64,000 bases of DNA from an uncultured Bacteroidales bacterium (GTDB taxonomy: Bacteria; Bacteroidota; Bacteroidia; Bacteroidales; Bacteroidaceae), in assembly GCA_902779875.1 (NCBI GenBank), contig CACZCX010000001.1, positions 10,930 to 74,929 of the forward strand. Direction: 5' to 3'. The position numbers and the translations under genes were made by a program. The notes under the pieces were generated by a model. It had not been told where the DNA came from and made no database searches. It saw only the letters and a list, made by a program, of their open reading frames with translations. Every line of letters begins with the position of its first letter. The first letter of the stretch is position 1. Below, piece by piece: positions 12,678 to 32,408 of the stretch.

Positions 12678-12706
12678 TAATGAATAGTGATTTAATTGGT
12701 TTACGA

Positions 12707-12714
12707 CAAAGGTA
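12707..12714 (-). promoter_or_regulatory. -7 promoter box (TACCTTTG) for the GH31 pair
   Basis: Exact TAnnTTTG on the minus strand 30 nt upstream of the ATG at 12677. Confidence 0.5.
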
Positions 12715-12794
12715 ATCAAAGTGATCCTTTCGGGAGAAATTTTTTGAGACAAAATAAAATACTTATCTTCAAAGCACCAATAAATTGACTTGTC

Positions 12795-19008: not shown

Positions 19009-19950
19009 TTATCCTTTTTTACTTTTCAGTCCCGATAATATCACACCGCCAAGTATCAGGGCGGATCCCGTGCCCGATGTCACCGACATGCTCTCGCCAA
19101 GGAATATGATGGCGCCAATGAGAGTGAACACCGGGTTCAAATATACATAGTTTGTGGCAGTTACGTTTCCGATAACCAACATAATCCTGTTCCAGAGCGC
19201 AAAGCAGAACAGTGATGCTATGGTTGACAGGAACAGAAGGTTTCCCCACACCTGTATGCTGTCAAACCGTACCATGGCCAGGTTTGAGTTATCGGACAGG
19301 AAGAGTACGGGCATGATGGTGAGCAGTCCGTAGAAGAACACCTTGCGGGTGGCGAACAGCGTGCCGTAGCGGTTGGTCATCTGCCCCATGAACTGGCTGT
19401 AGAAAGCCCAGCTCAGGGCTGCCGTAAAGGCCAGCAGGTCACCCTTGGGCGACAGGTTCAGGCTGGTGCCGTCAAATATCACCATCACCATACCCGACAG
19501 AGCCAGCACGGTACCGGCAATAAGTGGGAACCTAACCTTGACATGCTCCAGTTCGCTTATGATCCTGCTCTTTACGGTATGTTTCAGAACAAGCGTGAGC
19601 AGTATGGTTAGAAGCGGAGCCACACAGACTATGAACGATACGTTGCAGGCCTGCGTATATTTGAGTGCCGTGTTCTCGGTAAGGAAATAGAGTGAGCCGC
19701 CGGCTATACCCATAAGCAGGAACAGCAGTTCATGGCGCAGGCTGCGGGAGAATAACCTCCTGTACTCCCCTCCCCGTATAAGGCAGGCGGTGAGCAGTCC
19801 CGTATAGGCTATCACGAATCTGATGGTGAATATCTGCGCCGGTGAGAGTCCCTGGTTTATGAGTGTCTTGGTCGATACGAAAGTCACTCCCCAGAGAGCC
19901 ATCGTCATGAAAGCAAGTGCATGGTATAGAAATATTCCCTCTTTTTTCAT
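19009..19950 (-). CDS. EamA/DMT-superfamily transporter
   Basis: 313 aa with about 10 hydrophobic helices in two EamA-like halves. It lies 7 nt after the GT2 stop and 2 nt before the DPP3 start. Confidence 0.75.
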   Translation of the reverse strand: MKKEGIFLYHALAFMTMALWGVTFVSTKTLINQGLSPAQIFTIRFVIAYTGLLTACLIRGGEYRRLFSRSLRHELLFLLMGIAGGSLYFLTENTALKYTQACNVSFIVCVAPLLTILLTLVLKHTVKSRIISELEHVKVRFPLIAGTVLALSGMVMVIFDGTSLNLSPKGDLLAFTAALSWAFYSQFMGQMTNRYGTLFATRKVFFYGLLTIMPVLFLSDNSNLAMVRFDSIQVWGNLLFLSTIASLFCFALWNRIMLVIGNVTATNYVYLNPVFTLIGAIIFLGESMSVTSGTGSALILGGVILSGLKSKKG

Positions 19951-19957
19951 GTATGTG

Positions 19958-20767
19958 TCAGTTGGTTATAAAATCCTTAAGCCCCATAATCCATCCTTTT
20001 TTGAGAACCATGAGATTTATCTCACAGCGGAAAGGACGGAACAGATCATGGTCTTTAGCGTATTTCTTGAATGTCTTGAGCGAGCGTATCCTGTTCCTGT
20101 AGCGGTTACGGTCTCTTTTACGGCTTACGCTTGAAGGCATTATGTTGTAATGGTAGAGTGTGGTAGTGTCCGATGCTATCCGGCGGGCCGATATAAGGGC
20201 GCAGGCCAGGAAGCAGGTGTCTTCGGCACTGTGTGTATCGGGAAAACAGATGCCGTTGTCCGTAAGGAAAGACCTTCTGTAAATAAAGGTGGTGAAATAT
20301 GATACGTAATGTCTCAGGAACGCTTTCTTATGCCGGCGGGTGAATTCTCCGCTCTCTGTCTCAGGGTTGCGTCTTATCTGGTTGGGGCGGTCCTGATAAT
20401 CAAAGGAGATATTGCAGTACGCCAGATCGGCATTCTCTTTTACGGCTGCGTCATACAGTTTCAGGCAGAAATCGGGCTCAATCCGGTCATCACTGTCCAC
20501 GAACGCAATATAATCAGCGCTTGCCGCCGCTATTCCCGTATTGCGGGCTGCACCCGGTCCCTTGTTCGTGCCGTTATCGGCAAACACGATATTCATGTCA
20601 GGGTGGTTTCCGGCAAAAGCGCGGGCCCTGTCAATGCTGTCATCATGGCCATGGTCATCAACCAACACGATCTCCAGGTCTGTGAGGGTCTGGCTGCGCA
20701 GAGACTCAAGGCAGGGGATAATGTAATCACCTGCATTATAAACCGGTATGATGACTGACACCTTCAT
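19958..20767 (-). CDS. Glycosyltransferase family 2
   Basis: MKVSVIIPVYNAGDYI..., VDDHGHDDS and FVDSDD (DxD) motifs. Confidence 0.85.
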   Translation of the reverse strand: MKVSVIIPVYNAGDYIIPCLESLRSQTLTDLEIVLVDDHGHDDSIDRARAFAGNHPDMNIVFADNGTNKGPGAARNTGIAAASADYIAFVDSDDRIEPDFCLKLYDAAVKENADLAYCNISFDYQDRPNQIRRNPETESGEFTRRHKKAFLRHYVSYFTTFIYRRSFLTDNGICFPDTHSAEDTCFLACALISARRIASDTTTLYHYNIMPSSVSRKRDRNRYRNRIRSLKTFKKYAKDHDLFRPFRCEINLMVLKKGWIMGLKDFITN

Positions 20768-20771
20768 GCTT

Positions 20772-21623
20772 TTACCTGTTTTTTGACAGTTTCTTCCTGA
20801 GCTTGTACGGCCAGCGTGAAATGCGCTGCGGAACCTTTATTATCCACCTTATTATCTTATTGCCGAGAAAAGCCAGCCTGTCCGTAAAGCCGAACCGGGG
20901 TTTTTCAAGGCCGCGTATGGAGTAGGCCTCGTTTATGAGAGCGTCAATCCTTGCCTTCTGCATGCCGCGCTGGGGCTCAAAGAACTTTACTGCCCAATCC
21001 GGTGTGGTATAGAATCGGGCAAACCATGAATGCATGCAGATCCTGTTGCCTTCGGGGTCCAGCAGGATTGTGGTTGTGCCGTCATCATGACGTTGGGACG
21101 GCAGATACAGAGTCTTGAAATTGAATGCCATCCACAGGAAGAACCGGTAGTAGGGTTCCTGGTCATCGCGTCCGAAATCATATCTGGTCTCAAGCCTTTC
21201 CTTGGGGAACGACGATATCATCTGCTCCTTATGCTCCAGGTAGTTGAACTCCTTGACAGCCTTCCTGCTGAAAGCGGTACGTATGAGCTTGAGATTCAGG
21301 ATATTGAAGAACGGGTTCGTGACAATGGGATTTGCCACACGCGGGCAGAATCCGCCGCCGTCGGGACAACCGGCATTGGCATATCCGCCTTCCACCACAT
21401 AGTCAACCAACCTGAACATGGCATCGGGATCGGTAATGAAAGCGTCCTCATCAATATTAATGGCCACATCACACTCCTCATCCTTGAGCATGGTGTAGAA
21501 ATAGCCGTCGGCAGACTGGTCAGTGAGTCTTACCACCGGTATTCCCAATGTCTCATACAGTCCTCTTGAGTATCTGTAGAGTTTCAGGTCAAATGAGCGT
21601 GTAAATATCTTTATTCTGTTCAT
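20772..21623 (-). CDS. Hypothetical protein in the glycopolymer locus (no family recognised)
   Basis: 283-aa ORF embedded with 3-4 nt spacers between two GT2 genes. It contains an acidic INIDEDAF motif and a basic C-terminus. Confidence 0.55.
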   Translation of the reverse strand: MNRIKIFTRSFDLKLYRYSRGLYETLGIPVVRLTDQSADGYFYTMLKDEECDVAINIDEDAFITDPDAMFRLVDYVVEGGYANAGCPDGGGFCPRVANPIVTNPFFNILNLKLIRTAFSRKAVKEFNYLEHKEQMISSFPKERLETRYDFGRDDQEPYYRFFLWMAFNFKTLYLPSQRHDDGTTTILLDPEGNRICMHSWFARFYTTPDWAVKFFEPQRGMQKARIDALINEAYSIRGLEKPRFGFTDRLAFLGNKIIRWIIKVPQRISRWPYKLRKKLSKNR

Positions 21624-21626
21624 GTG

Positions 21627-22703
21627 TCATTTAAAGAACTTGACGAACAGGGCGGTCATGATCCTGTTCACGAATCGGTTAAAAGCCTCGAACCATGCCG
21701 GCCAGCGTTTGTGGTGCCTGCGCCAGTACCTGAGAGCATTGAATCTTATGATCTTGTTCTCCGGGTACAGACGTACCGTACCCAGTCCGTATTTGAGGGT
21801 CACGCCGGTAAGGTATGACTCCAACTCCGTAAAATGCTCCGTGTCAAACATATTGCGCGGTATGTCGAGCAGGTGACACTTAAGCATTATGCGAACCCTG
21901 TTGAGGTAGTACTGCCTTATGAACCTGAGCCTCTCCCCGGAGAGCGTCTGAAGGTCATAGGACTCCAGGAACTCAATCAGCTTGCGGGTCATGAGCTCCA
22001 TCTGGTCCAGGCTGCGTGCCAGGACCTTGGGGTCCATGGTCTGTCCCTCACGTGCCAGGTTATACTGGTAGAGGTTTATGTCGAGGAATGTTATGTCCTT
22101 GGCGCGGAATACCGGATAGCATGACCACTCGGTATCGGTATATGAGATTCCCTCGGTCTGACGGTAACCCATGTCACGCAGCATCTGAGTGCGGTAGGTG
22201 ATGGAGTGCATCAGGAAGAACCTTATGTATCCGTCACTGAGCACGCTGTCCAGGTCATACGCCTTACCGTACTCATAAGGCTCCTTGCCGTATACGTTGT
22301 ATTTGGTAACCTGACGCGAGCCGTCCTCTGATATGGTGTTGAAATGGGTTATGACCATATCGGTCGCGGCATTCTCAAGTGCATCGAGGAATTCCACGAG
22401 CGCACGGCTGTCAAACCAGTCATCGGAATCAAGGATCTTTACGTATCGGCCTTGAGCAACCGGCAGGGCGGCGTTAATGGTGGAGCCGTAGTTGCCGTTG
22501 GGCTTGTCTATCACCGTGACTGAGTCAGGGAAACGCTCCTTGTATGAGTTGGCCACCGCCAGTGAGTTGTCCTTGCTGCCGTCATTGACTACCATGGCCT
22601 CGATGCGTGAGAGGGCACCATCTACCAGGAGCGAGTCAAGACAGCGTGGAAGCAGGGCCTCCATGTTGTAGGTAGGTATTATTATGGACAGCAGTTTGCT
22701 CAT
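21627..22703 (-). CDS. Glycosyltransferase family 2
   Basis: LSIIIPTYNME, VNDGSKDNS and ILDSDD motifs. 4-nt overlap with glf. Confidence 0.85.
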   Translation of the reverse strand: MSKLLSIIIPTYNMEALLPRCLDSLLVDGALSRIEAMVVNDGSKDNSLAVANSYKERFPDSVTVIDKPNGNYGSTINAALPVAQGRYVKILDSDDWFDSRALVEFLDALENAATDMVITHFNTISEDGSRQVTKYNVYGKEPYEYGKAYDLDSVLSDGYIRFFLMHSITYRTQMLRDMGYRQTEGISYTDTEWSCYPVFRAKDITFLDINLYQYNLAREGQTMDPKVLARSLDQMELMTRKLIEFLESYDLQTLSGERLRFIRQYYLNRVRIMLKCHLLDIPRNMFDTEHFTELESYLTGVTLKYGLGTVRLYPENKIIRFNALRYWRRHHKRWPAWFEAFNRFVNRIMTALFVKFFK

Positions 22704-23797
22704 ATGTTCATAGAAAGGACTTTCTCTACGATCTGATGCATGTCATAGTACTTGTACTCGGCCAGTCGTCCTCCGAATATGACGTTGGGCTGACCGGCGG
22801 CAAGTTCCGCATACCTGGCGTAGAGGGAGTTGTTACGTTCGTTGTTGATGGGATAGTAGGGCGATGCACCCTTCTCCCATTTGCGTGAATACTCGTAGGT
22901 TATTACGGTGTCGGGCTGTTTGCCGAACTCAAAATGCTTGTGTTCTATGCAACGGGTGTAGGGTATCTCCGCCTCGGTGTAGTTAACCACTGCATTGCCC
23001 TGGAAATCGCTCACGCCCTCCATAAGCTTGTGCTCGAAACGGAGCGAACGAAAATCCAGCTCTCCCAGACGGTAACCGAAATAGGCATCGATCTGACCGG
23101 TAAAGAGGGTCTTCTCAGCCAGGGAGTCAAAATATTCGCGGTTCTCAAAGTAGTCGGTATCGAGCCTGACCTCTATTCCCTCGAGCAGTTTGCGGAATAT
23201 AGGGGTGTAGCCGCCTATGGGTATACCCTGGTATGTGTCGTTGAAATAGTTGTTGTTGAACTCGAACCGGAACGGCAGACGGCGTATCACGAAAGCCGGG
23301 ATCTCTGTGGCTTTCATGCCCCACTGCTTCTCGGAGTAGCCCTTGACCAGGGTCTCATATATATCCCTGCCGGCCAGTTTGAGCGCCTGCTCCTCCAGGT
23401 TCCGCGGCTCGGTTATATGGGCAAACTCAGCCCTCTGGCTCTCGATTATGGCCTTAGCCTCATCGGGAGTGTTCACGCCCCACAGCTGGTGGAATGTGTT
23501 CATGTTGAAGGGAAGGTTGTAGCGCTTGCCCCTGTAGCATGCTATAGGTGAGTTTATGAAGTCGTTGAATGGAACCAGGCTGTTCATGAAATCCCACACC
23601 TGGCGGTTTGACGTGTGGAATATGTGCGGTCCGTACTTGTGTACGTTTATGCCGTTTATCTCCTCGGTATAGCATCCCCCCGCAATATGGGGGTTACGGT
23701 CTATGACAAGACACCGCTTGCCCGCCTTATGTGCGCGGTAGGCGAACATGCTGCCATAGAGTCCGGCTCCTACTATGAGATAATCGTACTGTTTCAT
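22700..23797 (-). CDS. glf: UDP-galactopyranose mutase
   Basis: FAD fold YDYLIVGAGLYGSMFA, HKYGPHIFHT and C-terminal GGRLAEYKYYDM. Length 365 aa. Confidence 0.92.
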   Translation of the reverse strand: MKQYDYLIVGAGLYGSMFAYRAHKAGKRCLVIDRNPHIAGGCYTEEINGINVHKYGPHIFHTSNRQVWDFMNSLVPFNDFINSPIACYRGKRYNLPFNMNTFHQLWGVNTPDEAKAIIESQRAEFAHITEPRNLEEQALKLAGRDIYETLVKGYSEKQWGMKATEIPAFVIRRLPFRFEFNNNYFNDTYQGIPIGGYTPIFRKLLEGIEVRLDTDYFENREYFDSLAEKTLFTGQIDAYFGYRLGELDFRSLRFEHKLMEGVSDFQGNAVVNYTEAEIPYTRCIEHKHFEFGKQPDTVITYEYSRKWEKGASPYYPINNERNNSLYARYAELAAGQPNVIFGGRLAEYKYYDMHQIVEKVLSMNI

Positions 23798-23809
23798 TTG
23801 ATATCCTCT

Positions 23810-24637
23810 TTACAGGTTGACGTGGCAGTCCGATGTATCAACGCACACGAACTTGGCGTGGATTCGTCTCTTCTCCTTGGGCGGGACAGCCATATAGTCT
23901 CCGTACATATCCTTGAGTCGGGCATCAGGGTTCTTGGGAGCGGGATACATCCTTCCCTCAAACAGGATCTCCGACGGGGGTGTCATCTCTGACTGCAGGG
24001 TGGGATAGCCGTATATGAGACGGTCTATCGGCGTAAGCTCGCGGTCTTTTTTTGAGAACAGGCATATCAGTTTCCATATGCCCTTGAACAGGACATAGGA
24101 GACAGGGAACACAAAGTATGAGATTATGTTCCTGAATGAGAGCCTGGCATGATAGTGAAAGAATCCGTGTGCCTTGCATATGCGTTTGCGCATGAACTTG
24201 AGCAATCCCTTGGGAACCGAAGGATAGGGAACATCGGCAAACACATCGATAGATACACCTTTATGATAATTACTGCGGAAATCATCAAAATCATGGATGA
24301 ACAGGGTGTTGTCCTTGCGGATCTTGAACAGGCCGTCGCCCATGCATGACTCGGGGTCGGTCACCTCAGTCTGCATGAAATAGCCTTTGGCGAGCTTGTC
24401 TGCGCCTATGGACTTGAACTTCAGCCAATCAGCCAACGGCATGCTCACGTCAATGTCATCGTCCCAGGGAATGAAACCCTTATGACGGACAGCGCCGAGC
24501 AGTGTGCCAAAGTCCAGCCAATAGACCAGACCGTTCTCCCTGCATACGCGGTCAAACTCATTCAGGACATCGATGGATGCCAGCTGAGCCTTGCGTAACG
24601 GAGTCTCCGGGCCGTTGTATTCTGAGTAATCTTCCAT
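23810..24637 (-). CDS. LicD-family phosphotransferase (paralog 1)
   Basis: LDFGTLLGAVRHKGFIPWDDDIDV signature. Confidence 0.85.
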   Translation of the reverse strand: MEDYSEYNGPETPLRKAQLASIDVLNEFDRVCRENGLVYWLDFGTLLGAVRHKGFIPWDDDIDVSMPLADWLKFKSIGADKLAKGYFMQTEVTDPESCMGDGLFKIRKDNTLFIHDFDDFRSNYHKGVSIDVFADVPYPSVPKGLLKFMRKRICKAHGFFHYHARLSFRNIISYFVFPVSYVLFKGIWKLICLFSKKDRELTPIDRLIYGYPTLQSEMTPPSEILFEGRMYPAPKNPDARLKDMYGDYMAVPPKEKRRIHAKFVCVDTSDCHVNL

Positions 24638-25680
24638 TATAGTATGTTCTTTACTATTTCAAGTGTATCGGGGATGCCCTGGGTAACCGGAATCATCGGT
24701 TTCCATCCCAGTTTCTTTATGGCGGTGTTGTCGAGACGTGTCGACTCGTTGGGGGAGAATGCACGCTTCTCGCTCTCATCGGCCTCATGGTAAACCACGT
24801 TCACATGTCCGGCGCGTGCGGTGATCTCAGCCAGCTCACGTATGGAGATGAAACTGTTCTCATCCGATATATTGTATGCCTGCCCGCTCTCTCCGTAGAA
24901 CAGGGCAAAGAGCAGGGCCGATACGCAGTCGGCCACGTGGCAGTAACTGCGGCTCTGGGTCCCGGCGCTCTTGAGCACTATGTCCTGACCGCTTACGGCA
25001 TTCCTTATGAACTGGACGTAGACGCGGTTATCGGCCTTGGTGAAAGCGGGGCCGTAGGTGTGTGACGGACGTACGGTAACCACATCGGTCCCGAACTGTG
25101 CATGATAGCATGCACACAGGTTCTCGGCGGCTCTCTTGGAGGTGGGATAGCAGGAACGGGGAGCGGTCACGTCCACATATCCGCTGTCATGCTCCTTCCA
25201 CTCTGTCGGGCTGTCGCTCTCTCCGTAGACTTCGGCCGATGATACGTATAACATACGCTCCATGCCGTGGGCTGTCCCGTAACGGAGCAGGTTGTCCGTT
25301 CCCAGTATGGTGCCGCGCAGGGTTCCTACAGGGTCCGATGAGAACGCTGCCGGGAAGGAGAATCCGGCCGCATGGATTATGTACTGGAATAAGATGTCGG
25401 AGTTGACAGGCTCCGTGAGGTCCTGAACCATGAAATGGAAACGGGGATTCTCCCAGTAGGAGGCAAACCTCTTCCTGGCACCCTCCTCGCTGCGTCCGCA
25501 TATCCATACCTGGTAGCCGGCCTGTCCGTTTGACATAAGTACGTCAACCAGGAAAGATCCTATCATTCCGGTGGCTCCGGTCACGAGGATATTCTTTCCC
25601 TCCAACCGTTTCCAGGGGAACTCATCGGACAGGACACGTTCCATGTACTGCCTGTATAATCCTATCTCAGTGAGACTCAT
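24637..25680 (-). CDS. NAD-dependent epimerase/dehydratase-type (extended) SDR
   Basis: Rossmann motif VTGATGMIGSFL and catalytic YPTSK. The ATG at 25680 forms an ATGA overlap with the upstream stop. The longest ORF begins at a TTG (25689). Confidence 0.8.
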   Translation of the reverse strand: MSLTEIGLYRQYMERVLSDEFPWKRLEGKNILVTGATGMIGSFLVDVLMSNGQAGYQVWICGRSEEGARKRFASYWENPRFHFMVQDLTEPVNSDILFQYIIHAAGFSFPAAFSSDPVGTLRGTILGTDNLLRYGTAHGMERMLYVSSAEVYGESDSPTEWKEHDSGYVDVTAPRSCYPTSKRAAENLCACYHAQFGTDVVTVRPSHTYGPAFTKADNRVYVQFIRNAVSGQDIVLKSAGTQSRSYCHVADCVSALLFALFYGESGQAYNISDENSFISIRELAEITARAGHVNVVYHEADESEKRAFSPNESTRLDNTAIKKLGWKPMIPVTQGIPDTLEIVKNIL

Positions 25681-26387
25681 TTGAACCAACTCTCTTTCTT
25701 GCAGGTGAGCAAAGCCTTGAAAATCTCTATATCCTCAGGTGTGGTCAGCTTTACGTTCTTCTCGGAACCGGCTGAGAACCATACCTTGCGCCCCAGTTCC
25801 ACGAACAGGGTACATGAGGCGATTGAGTTCGTGATACCCTTCTGCTGAGCCTCTTCATGGGCACTGGCCAGGTCGCCTATGCGGAATGCCTGTGGGGTCT
25901 GTGTCCTCTTGAGCGAGTCGCGGTCGTAAAGGTCATCGGAACTCTTGCCGTCAGTCGTGGTGAGCATAGCCTCGGCACAGGGAATCACCGTTATGGCATT
26001 GCCATGCTGGCGGCATACGCTTATGCAGTCGGATATTATCTTGTCCGATATCATAGGCCTGATGGAGTCATGAATGAGCACTATATCATCATCCTTATGG
26101 CGTGAGCGTACATCCATCAGTCCGTTGCGGATGGACTCCTGTCCGCATTTGCCTCCGTTCACTATATTCTCCAGCTTGGTGATGTTGAACTGTTTGCAGT
26201 AAGCGCGCAGTATCTCATGCCATCCTTCTATGCATACCACCTCGATGGCATCGATCTCAGGATGATTCTGGAAAGCTTCCAGGGTATAGAGGATTACAGG
26301 CTTGTCGAATACATTCAGGAACTGTTTGGGTATGTCCTGCTGCATCCTGGCTCCCGATCCGCCCGCTATGATTATTGCTATGTTCAT
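25677..26387 (-). CDS. IspD/TarI-family cytidylyltransferase (candidate polyol-phosphate cytidylyltransferase)
   Basis: MNIAIIIAGGSGARM...PKQF N-terminus typical of the IspD/TarI family. It is a second paralog besides the gene at 51195-51899. Confidence 0.8.
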   Translation of the reverse strand: MNIAIIIAGGSGARMQQDIPKQFLNVFDKPVILYTLEAFQNHPEIDAIEVVCIEGWHEILRAYCKQFNITKLENIVNGGKCGQESIRNGLMDVRSRHKDDDIVLIHDSIRPMISDKIISDCISVCRQHGNAITVIPCAEAMLTTTDGKSSDDLYDRDSLKRTQTPQAFRIGDLASAHEEAQQKGITNSIASCTLFVELGRKVWFSAGSEKNVKLTTPEDIEIFKALLTCKKESWFK

Positions 26388-26411
26388 ATCTTTACCGGTT
26401 CTTTATGTTTC

Positions 26412-26419
26412 CAAAGATA
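26412..26419 (-). promoter_or_regulatory. Internal -7 promoter box (TATCTTTG) within the glycopolymer locus
   Basis: Exact TAnnTTTG on the minus strand in the only >20-nt gap of the locus, 24 nt upstream of the ATG at 26387. Confidence 0.45.
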
Positions 26420-26443
26420 GTCAAAAGTTCATTATGTACCGAC

Positions 26444-27265
26444 CTATCGTTTCACGACTATATCCAACAGCCTGTGATTCTCCTTCCTGTCAGGAATGGA
26501 GTTCCATTTGCCGTAAAGTACAGTAAGATAATGGTCTACATTGCAGGGGGCCTTGAATATGTGTCCCTCAAACTCCATTTCCTTTAGGGGAAATATGTCA
26601 CTGAGGAAACGCTGGGTATAGAATCCCGTCCCGTAATCGTGAATAAGTGAATCCGTGTGTAACACTCTGCCTATAAACCGAGCGGTAGCTATGGTCAGTT
26701 CTGCCAGAGGGTAGAGCAGGACTCCCGTCATATGTCTCAACCAGCCATCCTGAATAAGGTTGTAACGGCGGCGGTAGCAGCGTCCGTAAAACAGGTCAAT
26801 CTTTCTTGATACTGCCGGAACACCGTTCGTTTCATAGAATATGTCGAGCCATATGCTCTCCTCACGTTTCATGGTGCCACCCTTGACCTTGGGGTCGTCA
26901 ACCATCCTGGTAACCGTGACGGTGTTGTTGTAGAGCCTGCCCCAGCGACGGGTGTAATCCTTGCTTGAGTTGGCATCCACGAACGAGAACGGCTCCTGAA
27001 GATCGTTCTTAATGGCCCTGGCCAGTCTTTTTTGGTCTCTTTTGAGTACGCATACATCAAGGTCGTCATCCCATGGAATGAATCCCCCATGCCGTGCTGC
27101 ACCTAAAAGGGTTCCGGAGTCCAGCCAGTAGCTTATGTTGTTTTTCCTGCAAATCCTGTCGAATTCAACGAGTATGTCCAGAAGGTGGAGCTGCAGATTG
27201 CGCAGTTTTGAACCGTCCGGGTTGAATTGGGCTCTCAGTGCAAGTTGTATATCGTTATCAATCAT
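26444..27265 (-). CDS. LicD-family phosphotransferase (paralog 2)
   Basis: LDSGTLLGAARHGGFIPWDDDLDV signature. 8-nt overlap with the flippase gene. Confidence 0.85.
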   Translation of the reverse strand: MIDNDIQLALRAQFNPDGSKLRNLQLHLLDILVEFDRICRKNNISYWLDSGTLLGAARHGGFIPWDDDLDVCVLKRDQKRLARAIKNDLQEPFSFVDANSSKDYTRRWGRLYNNTVTVTRMVDDPKVKGGTMKREESIWLDIFYETNGVPAVSRKIDLFYGRCYRRRYNLIQDGWLRHMTGVLLYPLAELTIATARFIGRVLHTDSLIHDYGTGFYTQRFLSDIFPLKEMEFEGHIFKAPCNVDHYLTVLYGKWNSIPDRKENHRLLDIVVKR

Positions 27266-28820
27266 TTTTCCTGAGTGATTTGATTACGTTACAGAACATC
27301 TCAATGGCATGTTTGCGCTCCGTTTTAGTCGTTCCGATGGTGTAGACAAATAGGCATACAATAAGCATGCTGGCTGCAATCACTACCAGCGGTCCAAGCC
27401 ATTCCGTCTCAAACAGGGGAGTCACATACACCTTTACCAGCAGTGACAGCGCCGTACTTATCACGGTAACTGTAATAACCGGAACCAGTACCGTACGCAG
27501 ATAGTTCCTTATATCCAGTCCTATCTGTCTGCGCATGAACCACAGACGTTCTATGTGAGTAAAGAATGTAACCGCTATGGAGATTACGAACACCGATGCA
27601 GGTGGCAGTCCCAGATATTTTATTCCGATGTATGACAACGGGACAATCATGAGTAGCGTACAGCCTATGACCAGCTGATAGTTGCGTATCTTGCCGGTAG
27701 CCTGAATGGATGCGGCCATGGGACTGGTAAAGCAGTTGAGCATGCCGTCAATAAGCATAAGCTGCGTTATGAGGTATGCCTCATCGGGCACATTACGTCC
27801 TCTCAGCCAGATGGGGAGTATGAAATGGGTCTCCAGGAGTAAGGGGAGTGCAACCAGGAACAGCAGGAAATATGAGAATCTGGTACTCTGGCATATCAGC
27901 TTACGCATATCGTCCATCTCACCAGCCGCGTATGACTTGTAGAGCTGAGGTCTGGTGGCGGTAAAGAAATTGGTGTTGAGCTGCGAGAGAGTTACGTATA
28001 CCTTGTTACCTATACCTCTGGCCGCACTTACGATTGGACCGAATGTAGAGTTCAGCAGAAGGCTCAGACCCTGGCTTTTGAGTACATCGGCCGATGAGCC
28101 TATCAGATTCCATCCGGCATAGGAGAATATCTCCTTGAACCTCTCCCTGTCCATGGTGAACCTGAACCTGCATTCGCCGTAAAAAAGGTTGCAGTATATC
28201 CAGTAGAAGATGGTGTTGACTAGCTGTACTCCGGCCAGCAGTCCGGCATAGAGAATAAGCCTGCTGTCCTTGTCATCCTGGGTATGTGAAAGAAGAATGG
28301 CAATCACAAGATTGGCAAAGGCCTCGAACAGACTCAGGTAGGCGAATACCTTCATCTTCTCCTTGGCCACCACCATACCTTGATAGGGGGTACGAAGTAT
28401 TATCATGGCAAAGGAGAATACGCTGAACTGGAACACCCAGTGCGCCGCCTCGATATGTTCTCCCACTTTCATCCTGTTGTCCAGGTACCATACGCCTGCG
28501 GTCTCGCCCAGGATCACTATCAGGACTGTGAGTATAAAGAATACGGTCAGGCTCAGGTTGAACACCAGCTGAAGTCCGTTGCTGTTACCTTTGGCCATCT
28601 CGTATGAATAATAGCGTTGGCAGGCCGATGACATGGTGGAGCTTATGAACGATACCATCATCACGATTGATCCAACGGCATCATACACGCCGTAATGTTC
28701 AGTTCCCAGGGCATTGATAATGACTCTGGAGGTGTACAGTCCCACCACCATCACTATCAACATCCTCAGGTAGAGGAGCAGGGTGTTCTTGGCTATCCTT
28801 TGCTGATTGATTTCGGTCAT
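27258..28820 (-). CDS. Polysaccharide/oligosaccharide flippase (Wzx/MOP superfamily)
   Basis: 520 aa, about 14 hydrophobic helices, N-terminus RIAKNTLLLYLRMLI typical of Wzx-like proteins. Confidence 0.75.
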   Translation of the reverse strand: MTEINQQRIAKNTLLLYLRMLIVMVVGLYTSRVIINALGTEHYGVYDAVGSIVMMVSFISSTMSSACQRYYSYEMAKGNSNGLQLVFNLSLTVFFILTVLIVILGETAGVWYLDNRMKVGEHIEAAHWVFQFSVFSFAMIILRTPYQGMVVAKEKMKVFAYLSLFEAFANLVIAILLSHTQDDKDSRLILYAGLLAGVQLVNTIFYWIYCNLFYGECRFRFTMDRERFKEIFSYAGWNLIGSSADVLKSQGLSLLLNSTFGPIVSAARGIGNKVYVTLSQLNTNFFTATRPQLYKSYAAGEMDDMRKLICQSTRFSYFLLFLVALPLLLETHFILPIWLRGRNVPDEAYLITQLMLIDGMLNCFTSPMAASIQATGKIRNYQLVIGCTLLMIVPLSYIGIKYLGLPPASVFVISIAVTFFTHIERLWFMRRQIGLDIRNYLRTVLVPVITVTVISTALSLLVKVYVTPLFETEWLGPLVVIAASMLIVCLFVYTIGTTKTERKHAIEMFCNVIKSLRKND

Positions 28821-28822
28821 GA

Positions 28823-29764
28823 TTATATCCAGAATTTCTCCTTGATCTTGGGGAACGGCACATCGGGCACTTTTGACTCGAGAGCATCATAAATCTTGCT
28901 TGCAAAACAGATGTCGTGCAGTGCTATTCCTATGTTGTAGCTCAGAATACGCTCTTTATCGTTTTCTCTTCCGGGGTTATTGCCCAGAAGTACCTGGCTC
29001 AGCTCGTCGAATTTCCTGAATCTGTCAAAGTATCTGAATTCGTGAACGTGGGCGGTGTCATCGGCAAAGACCTTGTCAAAGAACAGGTCGCAGTTCTGGA
29101 ATCCGCGGGTGTGTATAGGAACGACAAGACAGCCTTCCCTGTAGCATTCGTCAGGTGCCACCAGTTCAGTGGCGGCAGTGACGCTTGACACTACCACATC
29201 GGCTCCGGATACCAGGTCATTGTGGTTGGAGACAGTCTCAAAACGTACGTTACCGTACTTTTCAAACCTTTCCATGAACAGCTGCTCCTGTCCCTTGTAT
29301 TCCATGAGAACTACGGTGATGGGATCCTTAACCGTTTCAAGAAGGCAGAGAAGTGTGGCACGTGCGGTATTGCCCAATCCTATGAACGAGTAGACCGATG
29401 CTTTTGAAGACTTGAGGGTATTGATGGCAAGGCTGGCAACTGCGCCGGTTCTCATAGCCGTGATCCAGTTGGCGTCCATCAACGCCAACAGATGACCGTT
29501 GTTTCCGTCATAAAGCAACAGTTCACTGTTGAGTGACGGCTTTTCAAGTGGGTATCTGCTTACCTCCTTTACTCCGAATCTGTTTACGGTTCCGGGTATG
29601 TAGCAGGGCATGGTGTTATAGAAGACCTCGCCAAAGGGTTTAAGGCTGTTTTTATGAGGCAAGATGCAATCATACTTCATCTTAAAACTCTCTGTAACCC
29701 ATTGGATACAATCCTTGGGCGAAATACCCAGGTCAATAATCTGTTGCTGTGTGATCAGTTTCAT
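28823..29764 (-). CDS. Ornithine cyclodeaminase / mu-crystallin family NAD(P)-dependent enzyme
   Basis: WITAMRTGAVASL and Rossmann FIGLGNTARATL motifs. 313 aa. Confidence 0.75.
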   Translation of the reverse strand: MKLITQQQIIDLGISPKDCIQWVTESFKMKYDCILPHKNSLKPFGEVFYNTMPCYIPGTVNRFGVKEVSRYPLEKPSLNSELLLYDGNNGHLLALMDANWITAMRTGAVASLAINTLKSSKASVYSFIGLGNTARATLLCLLETVKDPITVVLMEYKGQEQLFMERFEKYGNVRFETVSNHNDLVSGADVVVSSVTAATELVAPDECYREGCLVVPIHTRGFQNCDLFFDKVFADDTAHVHEFRYFDRFRKFDELSQVLLGNNPGRENDKERILSYNIGIALHDICFASKIYDALESKVPDVPFPKIKEKFWI

Positions 29765-31575
29765 AAAGCTTTAAGTGTGGAGTAGAGATAATGGTTGTCA
29801 TTCCTGTCGCGGACAGCTATCCTTATGTAGTTACGGCCCGAGAAAGCGCTTTTACCGCCACAGTCCTTGACCAGGATGTTGTATTTCTGCAGGAGCAGTC
29901 CCGTCAGTTCAGCTGATGTGAACCTGCCTGTCACTTCACAGAGGAAATAGTTGGCCTGTGACGGAATGACCCGCAGGAAAGGAATCTCCTTCAGTTCGTT
30001 ATAGAAGAGTTCCCGTTCAGCGATGAATTTGTCACAAGCATCAAAGTAATCCTTCTCATACTTGTTGAAGATCTGCATGTAGAACTCTCCGAACGAATTG
30101 ATGTTCCATATGGCAACCTCCTTGCGCATGCTCCTGATCATATCGGTATCGGCCGATGCCACAATGCCTAGTCGCAGTCCGGGAACACCGTATGATTTGC
30201 TGATGGACTTGACTACGGTCATGTGAGGATTATCCTCAAGTATGCTGTTCTTAAGCAGTGAGTTTTGGATGTGGTTCTCTGTGAAATCAACGAAACTCTC
30301 ATCGACTATGAGTCTGATGCCCTGCTTCCCGGTCCAGTCAATCAGTCTGAGCAGTTGGTTGAACGGGATGTAATTGCCCGAAGGATTGTCGGGGTTGATA
30401 AGCAGCAGTGATGAGATTCCCTTGCCGCCGAAATATCCGATGACGTCATCGGCCGTATAGCTGAAATCCCTGTTCTCAGGTGTAAAGAACACGGCGTTTT
30501 CAGGGAGACTCCTGTTGGGATATTCCTCGAATGTAGGCAGAATGAATCCGGTCTTTCCGCTGCAATGGTTTTCAATTAAGCACTTTATCAGTTCGGCGGC
30601 ACCGTTTCCGACACACACCAGTTCCTGTTTGATACCGAAGTATTTGCTGGCAATCAGTGAGTTGACTGCCATTCCTGACGGATATTCGGTGAGAAGCGTA
30701 TCAAAGTTGGCTCTCATCTCATCCTTCATCCTTGCGGAGGGAAAATAGGGGTTGACCAGATAACAGAAGTCCTTGAGGTGCGGGAAACGCCAGTAACCGC
30801 CGTAGCGGCTGTGGTACTTTTTCATGAGAGCGTCACCCTCGGAGAATATGGTTTCGGCAATATCCTTATCCTGTATGTCATCAATCTCGTACCACTTCTC
30901 GTCGGTTATGGGAAGCGCCTTCAGGGCTGATTTGTCAAGTGCTGTGATAACGCGTAACACCTGTTCGTAATACTCGTTGTTTCCCATAGCCCGGCTGTAT
31001 GCCTCAAGGAAGGGGACATACTGGTTACGGGAGAAATCGCAACTGAACTTGTATATGTTGCATGTCTTGAAATAGAATGGCACATCGGCGTACTTGAAAG
31101 CCTTCTTGGGTACGAAACTGACTATGTTGTTGTCCTCGTCTATACGTACCATCGTGCCGTCCATCCAGGTCTCGTACTTGGCGACCAGTGCAAGATTGGG
31201 ATAGGGGTTGTCTATTATCAGGTTCAGCATGCGGCTTTCAAACACCAGGTCGCTCTCCAGAAGCAGGGTGTCATCCTCCTGAAGTTCCTTCTTGGCAAGT
31301 GCCAGGGAGTATATATTGTTGGTCTTGTCGTATATCGGGTTCAGGATATATTCTATCTTGAGTTTTCCTTCATACCGGTTTCCGATGTACTGCATCAGGT
31401 TGTCAGCCTGATAACCTACCACAAGAACCACTCTTTTGAGATTCAGTTCAGCCAGTTGGGTCAGCATGCGGTCAATGAGTTTTACCCCGTTGACCTCTAT
31501 CATGCACTTGGTGTTCTCTTTTGTAAGTTCACCTAGTCTCTTGCCCATTCCGGCTGCCAGTATTATTGCTTGCAT
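29761..31575 (-). CDS. Bifunctional protein: LicC-like nucleotidyltransferase fused to a HisC/CobD-type class I/II PLP enzyme
   Basis: N-terminal ~245 aa: MQAIILAAGMGKRLG...NNIYSL. C-terminal ~350 aa: LVNPYFPS, INPDNPSG, VDESFVDF, the PLP-lysine motif SISKSYGVPGLRLG, and PSQANYFL. Confidence 0.85.
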   Translation of the reverse strand: MQAIILAAGMGKRLGELTKENTKCMIEVNGVKLIDRMLTQLAELNLKRVVLVVGYQADNLMQYIGNRYEGKLKIEYILNPIYDKTNNIYSLALAKKELQEDDTLLLESDLVFESRMLNLIIDNPYPNLALVAKYETWMDGTMVRIDEDNNIVSFVPKKAFKYADVPFYFKTCNIYKFSCDFSRNQYVPFLEAYSRAMGNNEYYEQVLRVITALDKSALKALPITDEKWYEIDDIQDKDIAETIFSEGDALMKKYHSRYGGYWRFPHLKDFCYLVNPYFPSARMKDEMRANFDTLLTEYPSGMAVNSLIASKYFGIKQELVCVGNGAAELIKCLIENHCSGKTGFILPTFEEYPNRSLPENAVFFTPENRDFSYTADDVIGYFGGKGISSLLLINPDNPSGNYIPFNQLLRLIDWTGKQGIRLIVDESFVDFTENHIQNSLLKNSILEDNPHMTVVKSISKSYGVPGLRLGIVASADTDMIRSMRKEVAIWNINSFGEFYMQIFNKYEKDYFDACDKFIAERELFYNELKEIPFLRVIPSQANYFLCEVTGRFTSAELTGLLLQKYNILVKDCGGKSAFSGRNYIRIAVRDRNDNHYLYSTLKAL

Positions 31576-32408
31576 AACGGTACTAATTTTTCCTTCCAGT
31601 AAAAATGTATATAGCTCTGCAACGGAACCCTCTCGTTTTCAGGGGGTAGCTGCATATAATCTCCGTAAACGGTCCTGAGCATCCTGTCATAACCGTCCGC
31701 AATGAAGAACTCTTCATTCCCGAACTGAACCAGATGGTAGGAATCAATATCGGACTTCTCATATCTGGCCATTATTCCGGGATAAGCCAATTGGGCCACA
31801 TGACCGGTGCTTCCGTACGGGATAGTTCCGTCAATACGGATGATTTCATCCACATATGACTCCGGCTTTTTCCAGAACAGGCTGAACAGTTTCTTCTTGA
31901 CGGTGTTGAGGTTAAAGAAGAAGGATTTCTCGAGAGAGAGCCTGCGTAACGCTTTCCTGCCCCTTACGGCGTCATGGTGTAACTTCCGGAGATTCATGTA
32001 TGATGACTCGAAAGTCTCGGCATCATCGCTGACAGAGTCCAACGGAAAGATGTCAACCCATACGCCTACATTGTCCGAATTCCTAAGCCAGGGAGTGAAA
32101 GTGGTGAAACAGGTCTCTTTGGCATCGCATATCCTGGCAAAAGCCAACATGCAGTCCTTCCTGTTTTTCCTGTTTATCATGACGTATCGGTCACTCCTGT
32201 AGGTCCGGCATAACTTGTCATAATCGGGACGCGGCATGAAAATGTCGATATCATCGTCCCATGGAATAAAACCTTTGTGACGTATGGCTCCTATCATAGT
32301 GCCGTACGCAAGGGAGTATTTGAGTCCGTTCTCAACACAGAACCTGTGTATCTCTCTCAATACATCAAGTGATTTGAGTTGCAGTTCTTTAAGGGTAAGT
32401 TCTCTCAT
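31563..32408 (-). CDS. LicD-family phosphotransferase (paralog 3)
   Basis: LAYGTMIGAIRHKGFIPWDDDIDI signature. 13-nt overlap with the downstream fusion gene. Confidence 0.85.
   Translation of the reverse strand: MRELTLKELQLKSLDVLREIHRFCVENGLKYSLAYGTMIGAIRHKGFIPWDDDIDIFMPRPDYDKLCRTYRSDRYVMINRKNRKDCMLAFARICDAKETCFTTFTPWLRNSDNVGVWVDIFPLDSVSDDAETFESSYMNLRKLHHDAVRGRKALRRLSLEKSFFFNLNTVKKKLFSLFWKKPESYVDEIIRIDGTIPYGSTGHVAQLAYPGIMARYEKSDIDSYHLVQFGNEEFFIADGYDRMLRTVYGDYMQLPPENERVPLQSYIHFYWKEKLVPLCKQ

Follow-up and report, generated by a model that had tools for sequence, protein, structure and literature searches.

A cytidylyltransferase-PLP enzyme fusion, an OCD-family reductase and LicD as a candidate cassette for a phospho-opine head group on a Bacteroidales surface glycan

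In the Lic1 system, phosphocholine reaches a surface glycan by way of the LicA kinase, the LicB permease (an EamA-type protein), the LicC cytidylyltransferase, which activates the head group to its CDP-linked form, and the LicD transferase. Opine dehydrogenases (octopine, alanopine and tauropine dehydrogenases, CntM, and the OCD-family tauropine and strombine dehydrogenases of sponges) use NAD(P)H to condense a primary amine reductively with an alpha-keto acid such as pyruvate; those known act on free amino acids or taurine and belong to anaerobic energy metabolism or to the production of crown-gall opines or metallophores. Taurine (2-aminoethanesulfonate) corresponds to 2-aminoethylphosphonate (AEP) as its sulfonate isostere and closely resembles ethanolamine phosphate. 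CobD, the L-threonine-O-3-phosphate decarboxylase, and SMUL_1544 (6oux), which we take to be the L-serine-O-phosphate decarboxylase of norcobamide synthesis, are stand-alone cobamide-pathway enzymes that act on free phospho-amino acids.

Two further systems combine a nucleotidyltransferase with a PLP enzyme in one protein. In the FR-900098 pathway of Streptomyces rubellomurinus, which leads to an antibiotic and has PEP mutase (Ppm) as its first enzyme, the bifunctional cytidylyltransferase/PLP-dependent decarboxylase FrbH converts CTP and 2-amino-4-phosphonobutyrate into CMP-3-aminopropylphosphonate, and later tailoring takes place on CMP-linked intermediates (PMC8007912, PMC6697681). Tde1415, a PntC-AEPT encoded near LicD genes, joins an N-terminal LicC/PntC-like cytidylyltransferase to a class V aminotransferase, and its route needs both Ppm and Ppd (Rice et al. 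2019, PMC6697681).

A three-gene cassette in a Wzx-type glycan operon

We analyzed a 64-kb stretch of Bacteroidales DNA (the window), in which licD, a nucleotidyltransferase-PLP (NT-PLP) fusion and an OCD-family gene form three minus-strand genes inside a Wzx-type glycan operon. The cassette opens with the gene for a LicD-family phosphotransferase (31563-32408; Pfam LicD, E 1.1e-38), followed by the 604-aa fusion of a LicC-like cytidylyltransferase and a CobD-like PLP enzyme (29761-31575) and by the gene for a 313-aa OCD/mu-crystallin-family NAD(P)-dependent enzyme (28823-29764; Pfam OCD_Mu_crystall, E 1.9e-27). The licD stop region overlaps the fusion start by 13 nt (31563-31575), and the start of the OCD-like gene overlaps the fusion stop by 4 nt (29761-29764). 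Because the Pfam scores of all three exceed the curated cut-offs, these are real genes and chance open reading frames are excluded. The ORF listing agreed exactly with an earlier note on this DNA in coordinates, in the motifs NNIYSL, SISKSYGVPGLRLG, MRTGA and GLGNTA, and in both overlaps; Pfam matches and overlaps likewise bore out its description of a true fusion of a LicC-like domain with a CobD/HisC-type PLP enzyme, tightly coupled to the OCD-family gene and licD.

All remaining genes of the locus also lie on the minus strand. Directly after the cassette, in the same operon, comes a Wzx/MATE-type flippase (27258-28820), for which the Pfam MatE and NCBIfam WZX_like matches are both weak. The gene order at the flippase is the same in locus L001, and the OCD-like gene is followed by a gene matching this flippase in L089, L134, L139 and L143. 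The operon continues with a second head-group cassette (23810-27265; Pfam and NCBIfam), which is context outside the opine cassette and encodes a LicD (26444-27265), an IspD/TarI-like cytidylyltransferase (25677-26387), an SDR (24637-25689) and a third LicD (23810-24637); here the NCBIfam subfamily model for D-ribitol-5-phosphate cytidylyltransferase passes its cut-off (168.1 vs 166). The rest of the glycan locus (19009-23797; Pfam) comprises a UDP-galactopyranose mutase (22700-23797), a GT2 (21627-22703), a 283-aa protein without Pfam match (20772-21623), a second GT2 (19958-20767) and, at its end, an EamA transporter (19009-19950).

The cassette thus resembles Lic1 in its LicC-like activation to a CDP-linked head group and its LicD-family transfer onto a surface glycan, and the EamA transporter at the end of the locus is a further likeness. 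In contrast to Lic1, it has no LicA-type kinase: no Pfam kinase domain was present among the locus genes scanned (19009-32408, including the 283-aa gene without Pfam match). It is also predicted to differ in that the fused PLP enzyme would make the head group de novo rather than rely on import, and in that an extra reductase would tailor it.

The fusion and its relatives

The fusion protein begins MQAIILAAGMGKRLG. Its N-terminal domain (approximately residues 1-250; 30826-31575), which is LicC/PntC-like and matches Pfam NTP_transf_3 (residues 3-133, E 6.7e-12) and NTP_transferase, carries the G-loop LAAGMGKRLG as well as the NNIYSL motif. In phmmer searches it matched LicC (1jyk, E 1.8e-11) and PntC (6pd1, E 1e-9), and a profile of the fusion family aligned PntC over positions 1-242. 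Some public gene calls start the protein at Met10 (595 aa); the 604-aa start is the better one, because the Met10 start would cut the conserved LAAGxGxRL loop.

The C-terminal domain (approximately residues 251-604; 29761-30825) is a class I/II PLP enzyme (Pfam Aminotran_1_2, residues 304-598, E 1.2e-24), in which the Schiff-base lysine is K460 (SISK) and R468 lies within PGLRLG. The two conserved CobD arginines that bind the substrate phosphate are matched in the alignment by K570 and R585; these positions, like the Schiff-base lysine, are conserved columns of our alignments. The top NCBIfam match was CobD, at 151.8 bits below its cut-off of 290.55, and HisC (TIGR01141) scored 128.7 bits, also below its equivalog cut-off. 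The earlier note had proposed a phylogenetic placement of this domain against CobD, HisC and aminotransferases; we ranked PDB structures with the family profile: 6oux came first (268 bits), 3ftb second (224 bits), CobD 1lc5 third (170 bits) and 3fkd fourth, with HisC structures lower (8bj1, 154 bits; E. coli HisC, 121 bits). The structures 6oux, which bears the same name as SMUL_1544, 1lc5 and 3fkd carry decarboxylase names, whereas 3ftb is named histidinol-phosphate aminotransferase. By these scores the PLP domain is closest to serine/threonine-phosphate decarboxylases of the CobD/SMUL_1544 branch and retains their lysine, the arginine of PGLRLG and the two residues that match the CobD arginines, while it differs from CobD and SMUL_1544 in being fused to a cytidylyltransferase, in its place in a glycan locus and in its score below the CobD equivalog cut-off.

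The closest precedent, which the earlier note had missed, is FrbH: it has the same domain order and yields a decarboxylated CMP-amine (PMC8007912, PMC6697681). Compared by architecture and description, FrbH and the fusion both consist of an NTP_transf_3-type nucleotidyltransferase followed by a class I/II-fold PLP domain, are about 600 aa long and have the PLP lysine near residue 460. Like the route proposed below, FrbH takes an amino-acid phosph(on)ate and CTP to a decarboxylated amine linked to CMP, on which N-tailoring follows. FrbH uses a phosphonate, whereas the fusion stands without Ppm in a Wzx/LicD glycan operon and its likely substrate is the phosphate ester phosphoserine; reasoning from the structures, we regard 2-amino-4-phosphonobutyrate as the C-P isostere of phosphoserine. 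A PntC-AEPT identity of the fusion, an outcome that the earlier note had itself raised, was rejected: 6pd1 matches only the N-terminal domain, its class V aminotransferase has no match to the class I/II domain, and Ppm and Ppd are both absent from the window, with no PEP-mutase motif anywhere in its 64 kb.

The earlier note had also asked whether the fusion might be a common, already characterized enzyme. Common it is: clustering at 90% identity gives at least 8000 clusters, and the species-representative genomes contain at least 590 matching loci; we found no published characterization of the glycan-locus family. Metagenome loci entered the analysis without dereplication, and L110-L129 share one gene order and probably represent one lineage. 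In most of 80 loci a LicD gene adjoins the fusion/reductase pair (29 at +2, 11 at -1), and co-occurrence across loci shows the trio to be a conserved unit, as the earlier note had suggested might be checked. Its idea of a kinase-free route is plausible, given that no kinase recurs near the fusion in the 80 loci and that phosphoserine is a central metabolite; the chemistry of the fusion itself is a prediction. Some relatives of the fusion are followed by a CDP-OH_P_transf gene, some adjoin SAM methyltransferases or GNAT acetyltransferases or are fused to them, and in one (P0356) a PLP domain without detected NT domain is fused to a Glyphos_transf domain. Because relatives pair with LicD and with these transferases, we infer that the fusion product is a CDP-alcohol with a modifiable amine.

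If the PLP domain were instead an aminotransferase, acting for example on DHAP to give serinol phosphate, as does C. jejuni Cj1437, or on another phospho-keto compound, a different CDP-amino-alcohol would result, which the OCD/ODH partner would still tailor or supply. Membership of the HisC/CobD group, where TIGR01141 stands beside CobD with both equivalog cut-offs missed, and the significance of many HisC structures in the family-profile search speak for this reading. We nevertheless think it unlikely, since named decarboxylases take the first, third and fourth ranks, against 154 bits for the HisC structure 8bj1 and 121 bits for E. coli HisC, and FrbH, with its like architecture, is a decarboxylase. 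Moreover, the OCD-like gene also pairs with the AEP pathway, the product of which is a 2-aminoethyl compound like ethanolamine phosphate, and the CDP-alcohol phosphatidyltransferase or methyltransferase genes near the fusion in some distant loci fit ethanolamine/choline-type chemistry.

Two reductase families in one slot

The OCD-like protein forms a subfamily of its own with the signature HTRGFQNCDLFFDK. It misses every NCBIfam equivalog cut-off, with SbnB (TIGR03944) among its best full-length matches (E 1.8e-25; 89.7 vs a cut-off of 326.9 bits), and it is equidistant from all characterized subfamilies, with at most 24% identity to any solved OCD-family member. Its AF2 model (pLDDT 90) superimposes on OCD, CRYM, SbnB and AlaDH structures with TM scores of 0.78-0.85, and the Lys/Arg pair predicted to bind the alpha-carboxylate is conserved.

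The slot directly downstream of the fusion (+1) holds an Octopine_DH-family (ODH) protein in 45 of the 80 loci, as 40 separate genes, four ODH-LicD single-ORF fusions and one NT-PLP-ODH triple fusion (L032); an OCD-family gene occupies it in 18, both families in two and neither in 14, and one locus ends at a contig edge. Sequence comparison shows no relationship between the two families (best BLASTP E 1.3). On the fusion tree OCD and ODH partners are mixed, with at least 24 partner changes by Fitch parsimony, and for half of the OCD-partnered fusions the nearest neighbour is ODH-partnered. In the pairs L080/L056 and L062/L075, gene order around the slot is equal and the reductase differs. Loci that are otherwise identical have repeatedly exchanged one of these unrelated reductase families for the other. 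The ODH partner matches Pecten octopine dehydrogenase (E 1e-26 to 1e-31), and the residues that align with His212, Arg324 and Asp329 of that enzyme are retained. Opine dehydrogenases occur in both families; tauropine and strombine dehydrogenases belong to the OCD/CRYM superfamily, as do SbnB and pyruvate-alkylaminating enzymes (PMC4141209, PMC8446579). Because it is interchangeable with Octopine_DH-family genes, the OCD-like partner, for which the earlier note had no role, is most likely a reductase of the opine-dehydrogenase type that N-carboxyalkylates its substrate; all Rosetta-stone fusions are with ODH and none with OCD, so this assignment rests on positional equivalence.

In a reciprocal scan, the fusion was adjacent in 69 of 78 OCD-like loci and elsewhere in the locus in one. 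In three (L138, L139, L143) a complete AEP pathway (PntC, Ppm, Ppd and AEPT) stands in place of the fusion; the OCD-like gene directly follows AEPT in L139 and L143, and in L138 the two genes are neighbours on opposite strands. This AEP phosphonyl-tailoring pathway and the cassette therefore share the OCD-like subfamily, and AEP is the C-P analogue of the head group. A Parabacteroides locus (L003/L004) has an OCD-like gene of 58% identity and no fusion within 10 kb.

An upstream role for the OCD-like/ODH enzyme as an amino-acid dehydrogenase that makes or restocks the amino-acid substrate, for example forming phosphoserine from 3-phosphohydroxypyruvate and NH3 or resembling archaeal alanine dehydrogenase, would leave the head-group nitrogen unmodified. 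The OCD family does hold an NH3-dependent alanine dehydrogenase and other amino-acid dehydrogenases, and the Lys/Arg pair for an alpha-carboxylate is kept. We consider this role distinctly improbable: the Octopine_DH family, in which we know of no enzyme that uses ammonia, fills the same slot; the AEP pathway in L138, L139 and L143 is already complete; central metabolism already supplies phosphoserine; and triple fusions with methyltransferase or GNAT domains suggest tailoring of the product amine.

Very improbable, in our judgment, is an SbnB- or cyclodeaminase-like oxidation or deamination that would turn the amine into an aldehyde or other group without adding a carboxyalkyl. It would fit the SbnB match, SbnB working alongside a PLP enzyme that consumes phosphoserine, and the two loci with ODH and OCD together (L002, L036), where an opine could be formed and then cleaved on its other side. 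However, the SbnB score lies far below its cut-off, most loci have one reductase only, and cleavage requires a secondary amine, for which single-reductase loci have no other maker. The double occupancy of L002 and L036 is unexplained by simple functional equivalence.

That the fusion acts on phosphonates like FrbH and PntC, for example taking phosphonoalanine to CMP-AEP with PEP mutase encoded elsewhere in the genome, is hardly to be expected, even though both those enzymes use phosphonates and the OCD-like gene can occur in AEP loci: EDKxxxxxNS is absent from all called ORFs, both in the window and in the genome loci (which reach at most some 10 kb to each side of the fusion), the single raw six-frame match (L037) lying outside any called ORF; according to Rice et al. 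(PMC6697681), two-thirds of nucleotidyltransferases have ppm no more than five genes away; and in the AEP-type loci the NT is a stand-alone PntC-like protein and the AEPT belongs to class V, in place of an NT-PLP fusion.

A proposed route to a phospho-opine head group

We judge the chances about even that the cassette builds a modified phospho-amino-alcohol head group and places it on the Wzx-exported surface glycan, a route read from sequence and gene context in three steps. First, the bifunctional fusion would convert O-phospho-L-serine and CTP into CDP-ethanolamine without a kinase. By analogy with FrbH, this may proceed through CDP-serine, or decarboxylation may come first; the order assumed in the earlier note, amine made and then activated, may thus be reversed. 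Second, the OCD-family enzyme would join an alpha-keto acid, in the simplest case pyruvate, to the free primary amine of (CDP-)ethanolamine phosphate and reduce the resulting imine with NAD(P)H to an N-(1-carboxyalkyl)-ethanolamine phosphate, which we name "phospho-opine". Third, LicD would take the phospho-head group off the CDP donor and attach it to a hydroxyl on a sugar of the repeat unit.

We found no report of an opine dehydrogenase that serves polysaccharide biosynthesis or acts on a head group that is phosphorylated or nucleotide-activated, and no published genes for this carboxyalkylamino phosphate decoration. Such a substituent, 2-[(R)-1-carboxyethylamino]ethyl phosphate, is reported from the Proteus mirabilis O14 O-antigen (Perepelov 1999), and a survey of Proteus O-antigen clusters names no genes for it (PMC5560731). 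Besides this Bacteroidales bacterium from gut or rumen, which has it in a capsule-type locus, hundreds of other species carry the cassette. Should pyruvate be the keto acid, the head group predicted for the cassette would be exactly the O14 substituent, known from a bacterium of a different phylum.

The fusion protein and its operon

The glycan locus of the window (19009-32408) is bordered on both flanks by housekeeping genes and, according to Pfam and NCBIfam, also encodes a UDP-galactopyranose mutase and two GT2s. Three of its genes, all on the minus strand, overlap in series: a LicD gene (31563-32408; 134 bits against the PF04991 cut-off of 22.6), the 604-aa ORF of the NT-PLP fusion (29761-31575; NTP_transf_3/NTP_transferase plus Aminotran_1_2) and the 313-aa OCD-like ORF (28823-29764; OCD_Mu_crystall), with 13 nt shared by LicD and the fusion and 4 nt by the fusion and the OCD-like gene. 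The Pfam scores of all three products exceed the curated cut-offs, and the ORF listing of the window reproduces the reading frames, overlaps and motifs quoted in the earlier note. A Wzx/MATE flippase gene (27258-28820) begins 2 nt past the OCD-like gene. The same operon contains a second head-group cassette (23810-27265), made up of an IspD/TarI-like cytidylyltransferase, an SDR and two further LicD paralogues; this cytidylyltransferase scores above the ribitol-5-P cytidylyltransferase subfamily cut-off, and the SDR overlaps it by 13 nt. It is probable that the glycan of the window bears two phospho-substituents that differ from each other. The operon ends distally with an EamA-family transporter gene (19009-19950), a type to which the LicB choline permease presumably also belongs; it has no LicA-type kinase beside it, and among the locus genes of 19009-32408 that were scanned, none gave a Pfam kinase domain. 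Downstream of the glycan locus region, and unrelated to the cassette, the window also carries tandem GH31 glycoside hydrolase genes (7987-12752; 796 and 792 aa).

The description of the N-terminal domain as LicC-like was borne out. Residues 3-133 match NTP_transf_3/NTP_transferase in Pfam with 46.3 and 44.3 bits (cut-offs 27 and 21.2), and the nearest solved structures are LicC (1jyk, E 1.8e-11) and the PntC domain of the PntC-AEPT fusion Tde1415 (6pd1, E 1e-9), with which the family profile aligns across positions 1-242, i.e. over the whole domain. The G-loop reads ILAAGMGKRLG, fitting LAAGxGxRL, and the family shows hardly any variation at L6, A7, A8, G9, G11 and R13. Several public gene calls of the same or a near-identical protein start at Met10, giving 595 aa; that start loses part of this conserved nucleotide-binding loop, which favours the 604-aa start. 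The domain is predicted to use CTP to form a CDP- or CMP-linked head group, with indirect support from downstream LicD and CDP-OH_P_transf enzymes, which use CDP-alcohols.

The C-terminal domain (residues 304-598; Pfam Aminotran_1_2, 87.7 bits) is a fold-type I, class I/II PLP enzyme. Its Schiff-base lysine K460 in SISK and the expected PLP-phosphate arginine, R468 in PGLRLG, are invariant or nearly so in the family and align with SLTK and PGLRLG of CobD; K570 and R585 are also conserved and align with two conserved CobD arginines that we take to bind the substrate phosphate. The family profile scores 268.5 bits against 6oux. This entry shares its name, 'threonine phosphate decarboxylase-like enzyme', with SMUL_1544, presumably the L-serine-O-phosphate decarboxylase of norcobamide synthesis, which is tied to 6oux by this name match. 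Scores for the decarboxylases CobD (1lc5) and P. gingivalis Thr-P decarboxylase (3fkd) are 170.4 and 166.1 bits, against 153.9 bits for the HisC structure 8bj1 and 120.9 for E. coli HisC. By this ranking the domain is nearer to decarboxylases than to HisC aminotransferases, notwithstanding 3ftb (224 bits), whose HisC name was given by a structural-genomics project. The CobD equivalog cut-off (NCBIfam TIGR01140) is missed at 151.8 versus 290.55 bits, and on these alignments the domain is a relative of CobD and not a CobD orthologue, a putative CobD/SMUL_1544-type phospho-amino-acid decarboxylase.

The closest precedent for the fusion, compared by published description only, is FrbH, the bifunctional enzyme of the FR-900098 pathway, which likewise unites, in a single chain of ~600 aa, an NT domain with a class I/II PLP domain C-terminal to it. 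In that pathway, later tailoring takes place on CMP-linked intermediates (PMC8007912; PMC6697681). We infer that the FrbH substrate, 2-amino-4-phosphonobutyrate, is a C-P isostere of phosphoserine. The genomic settings differ: the cluster of FrbH includes PEP mutase (Ppm), whereas the corresponding motif EDKxxxxxNS is absent across the whole 64-kb window and from every called ORF of the window and the genome loci, a lone raw six-frame match in L037, one of these loci, lying outside any called ORF. An identity as a PntC-AEPT did not hold: Tde1415 (described in PMC6697681) aligns to residues 2-152 only, i.e. to the N-domain, its PLP domain is of class V, unlike that of the fusion, which falls in Aminotran_1_2 and not in Aminotran_5, and the window lacks the Ppm motif.

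Reductase genes beside the fusion

The slot downstream of the fusion was surveyed in the window, in L002 and in 78 species genomes, 80 loci together; ORFs were called and neighbours classed by BLASTP, clustering and Pfam. At +1, an Octopine_DH-family gene (ODH) is present in 40 loci and a window-type OCD-family gene in 18; both occur in two loci, an Octopine_DH-LicD single-ORF fusion in four, a short LicD-like gene in four and other genes (flippase, sugar aminotransferase etc.) in ten, with Octopine_DH in frame with the fusion itself in one locus and a contig edge in another. One of the two reductase families fills the slot in 65 of the 79 informative loci, and these families show no sequence kinship (best BLASTP E 1.3). 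LicD is the next commonest neighbour, at +2 in 29 loci and at -1 in 11. No recurrent kinase was found near the fusion in the 80 loci; the recurrent neighbours that were annotated, most of the commonest clusters, comprise LicD, flippases, GTs, acyltransferases and housekeeping flanks, with no conserved kinase among them.

On the tree of fusion proteins, ODH- and OCD-partnered members are intermixed: Fitch parsimony puts the number of partner changes at 24 or more, and half of the OCD-partnered fusions (9/18) have an ODH-partnered nearest neighbour. Two pairs of loci, L080 with L056 and L062 with L075, have the same flanking gene order and different reductases. The exchange of ODH and OCD between like loci is a non-orthologous displacement in situ. 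The partners are also joined physically. In a Muribaculaceae MAG, a single 946-aa ORF (L032:10001-12841) contains NTP_transf, Aminotran_1_2 and Octopine_DH in frame, with a junction that was checked and reads ...ALKSL-NG-LNICICGGGNLGH; as a Rosetta-stone fusion, it unites head-group synthase and opine dehydrogenase. Octopine_DH and LicD are combined in one 599-aa ORF at L048:11818-13617, and likewise in L013, L022 and L039, which physically ties the reductase to the phosphotransferase.

Four related loci (L005, L006, L008 and L019) have a LicD-like gene of ~231 aa right after the fusion and no reductase, and are predicted to make an untailored head group. In L002 (8878-10939) and L036, ODH and OCD genes occupy +1 and +2 past the fusion. 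These double reductases do not fit a simple model of interchangeable enzymes; they possibly catalyse two successive steps or use two keto acids.

A reciprocal scan with a profile of the OCD-like subfamily (signature HTRGFQNCDLFFDK, alignment A2) yielded 80 metagenome loci, 78 of them with a callable ORF. The pairing that the earlier note had seen in the window recurs: the fusion is directly adjacent to the OCD-like gene in 69 of these 78 loci, which were not dereplicated and include one gene order, probably of one lineage, in L110-L129. This adjacency rules out that the OCD-like gene is an unrelated operon passenger. In one further locus the fusion lies one small ORF away, five loci are cut by contig ends, and three (L138, L139 and L143) lack the fusion. 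In place of it, these three encode a PntC-like NT, a CyTase-PEP mutase, a Ppd-like TPP enzyme (Ppd, phosphonopyruvate decarboxylase) and a class V AEPT-like aminotransferase. The OCD-like gene of L139 and L143 directly follows these genes of the 2-aminoethylphosphonate (AEP) pathway and precedes Wzx and LicD; in L138 it adjoins the AEPT-like gene but is encoded on the other strand, and the decarboxylase-like gene is truncated by the end of the contig. Because the OCD-like gene stands after either route to an aminoethyl-phosph(on)ate head group, the arrangement argues that its product acts on that head group; because it is common to both routes, it also argues that the fusion product is ethanolamine phosphate or a close analogue.

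In Parabacteroides, an OCD-like gene with 58% identity to that of the window lies in a polysaccharide locus (L003:10001-10942; L004:7515-8456) that has no NT-PLP fusion within 10 kb. Nearby genes encode UDP-glucose dehydrogenase, Metallophos, Wzy-like, GT4, radical SAM/SPASM and CotH proteins, and this enzyme may act on a different amine.

A predicted opine-type modification

The OCD-like protein belongs to PF02423 (96.5 bits, cut-off 24). Its AF2 model (pLDDT 90) confirms the fold, with Foldseek TM values of 0.78-0.85 to 6t3e, 4bv9, 1omo, 4m54 and 1x7d, and gives no hint of the substrate. GLGNTA, a GxGxxA dinucleotide-binding motif, is invariant in the subfamily, and Lys/Arg residues aligned with carboxylate-binding positions are kept. 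The protein falls outside the characterised OCD subfamilies (OCD, AlaDH, SbnB, Pyr2C reductase, BhcD, EutC and others), as all 14 NCBIfam matches are far under their cut-offs (best 94.3 versus 417 and 89.7 versus 326.9), and it shares at most 24% identity with any solved member. We reject a true orthologue of ornithine cyclodeaminase, alanine dehydrogenase or SbnB, since the protein reaches none of the equivalog cut-offs and its model stands equally far from all solved members.

By its genomic slot and by the partners that it shares with Octopine_DH genes, the OCD-like gene fits an opine dehydrogenase. The ODH partner itself matches Pecten octopine dehydrogenase with E 1e-26 to 1e-31 and retains residues aligned with His212, Arg324 and Asp329, which we take to be the catalytic residues of that enzyme. 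To our knowledge, the ODH and OCD families have just one chemistry in common: an amine and an alpha-keto acid form an imine, which is reduced with NAD(P)H. Tauropine and strombine dehydrogenases belong to the OCD/CRYM superfamily, as do SbnB, whose substrate for oxidation is an opine-like secondary amine, and pyruvate-alkylaminating enzymes that use primary amines (PMC4141209; PMC8446579). By analogy with a family known to be capable of it (PMC4141209; PMC8446579), the OCD-like enzyme is predicted to condense an amine reductively with an alpha-keto acid; in the same analogy, taurine is the sulfonate isostere of AEP. [quoted passage not shown] The main text of a survey of Proteus O-antigen clusters (PMC5560731) mentions no genes for this substituent, and a search of its supplements by enzyme name gave no match for such genes. 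In the full-text literature outside most subscription journals, we found no paper linking an opine dehydrogenase or OCD with LicD, capsule, phosphoethanolamine or AEP.

Based on these findings, we propose a route in which the NT-PLP fusion would convert O-phospho-L-serine and CTP to CDP-ethanolamine, with either cytidylylation or decarboxylation as the first step; the OCD-like enzyme would then use an alpha-keto acid and NAD(P)H to form CDP-N-(1-carboxyalkyl)ethanolamine; and LicD would transfer the phospho-head group to the repeat unit before export by Wzx. That the fusion makes a CDP-amino-alcohol is highly probable, and ethanolamine is the somewhat favoured alcohol. N-carboxyalkylation of this product by the OCD-like enzyme we likewise hold to be rather probable, and the whole chain from the fusion through the OCD-like enzyme to LicD seems to us evenly balanced between right and wrong. 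More tentatively, bacterial surface glycans might carry 'phospho-opines', in which CDP-ethanolamine from an FrbH-like, kinase-free route or CMP-AEP is N-carboxyalkylated by ODH or OCD and transferred by LicD, the two unrelated reductase families having been recruited by convergence and freely exchanged. Precedents exist for the individual chemistries: LicC/LicD for head-group transfer, FrbH for the bifunctional enzyme, and the known opine dehydrogenases. What seems not to have been described is the way a glycan cassette brings them together, the recourse to two reductase families by convergence, and a head group that arises without a kinase.

Distribution of the fusion and its significance

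Homologues of the fusion form at least 8000 clusters at 90% identity; at 50% identity, 625 clusters have E <= 1e-30, mostly full-length proteins of ~600 aa reaching down to 31% identity. Their source annotations are generic names only. At least 590 loci in species-representative genomes encode the fusion, and the best 80 of these come mainly from Prevotella, Alloprevotella, Muribaculaceae, Alistipes and Bacteroides, with single records labelled Fibrobacter, Treponemataceae, Lachnospiraceae and Eggerthellaceae. Cultured carriers include Xylanibacter rarus 109, which has an ODH partner (L012), Prevotella sp. P5-50, Bacteroides sp. 224 and Prevotella sp. MGM2, the last of these lacking a reductase.

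Some relatives carry additional domains. A C-terminal SAM methyltransferase is added to the NT-PLP enzyme in four independent clusters (P0243, P0244, P0359 and P0376), and such variants could make phosphocholine-type head groups de novo. Others have a C-terminal GNAT (P0389) or an N-terminal GT4 (P0383), and in P0356 the PLP domain alone is placed after a Glyphos_transf domain. Distant members (34-44% identity) adjoin GNAT with or without LicD. Still other homologues, at 33-35% identity (L169:2097-5697 and L168:2273-5324), have a CDP-alcohol phosphatidyltransferase downstream and/or flanking SAM methyltransferases: one arrangement has the phosphatidyltransferase plus a methyltransferase downstream, another an adjacent methyltransferase. 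These neighbourhoods suggest that, in other lineages, distant relatives feed a CDP-alcohol phosphatidyltransferase and so give rise to PE/PC-type lipids by a Kennedy-like route that needs no kinase. A common reading of the relatives is that the fusion delivers a CDP-activated alcohol with a free amine, which is tailored afterwards.

The head groups of capsules and O-antigens influence how the immune system recognises gut Bacteroidales, how phages adsorb to them and how they colonise, and zwitterionic motifs in particular are immunomodulatory. In the species-representative genomes, the cassette is annotated just as 'aminotransferase' and 'ornithine cyclodeaminase'. Two unrelated reductase families that replace each other time and again make a clean natural case of non-orthologous displacement. 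If confirmed, our reading would put names to three protein sets, each very large and annotated generically, and would identify the genes behind a substituent chemically known since 1999; N-(1-carboxyethyl)ethanolamine-phosphate substituents would thereby have their first basis in genes and enzymes. It would also provide a kinase-free route to CDP-ethanolamine, would extend opine-dehydrogenase chemistry to activated head groups, the enzyme being the first opine dehydrogenase with a nucleotide-linked substrate, and would imply phospho-opine modification in hundreds of gut and rumen Bacteroidales species.
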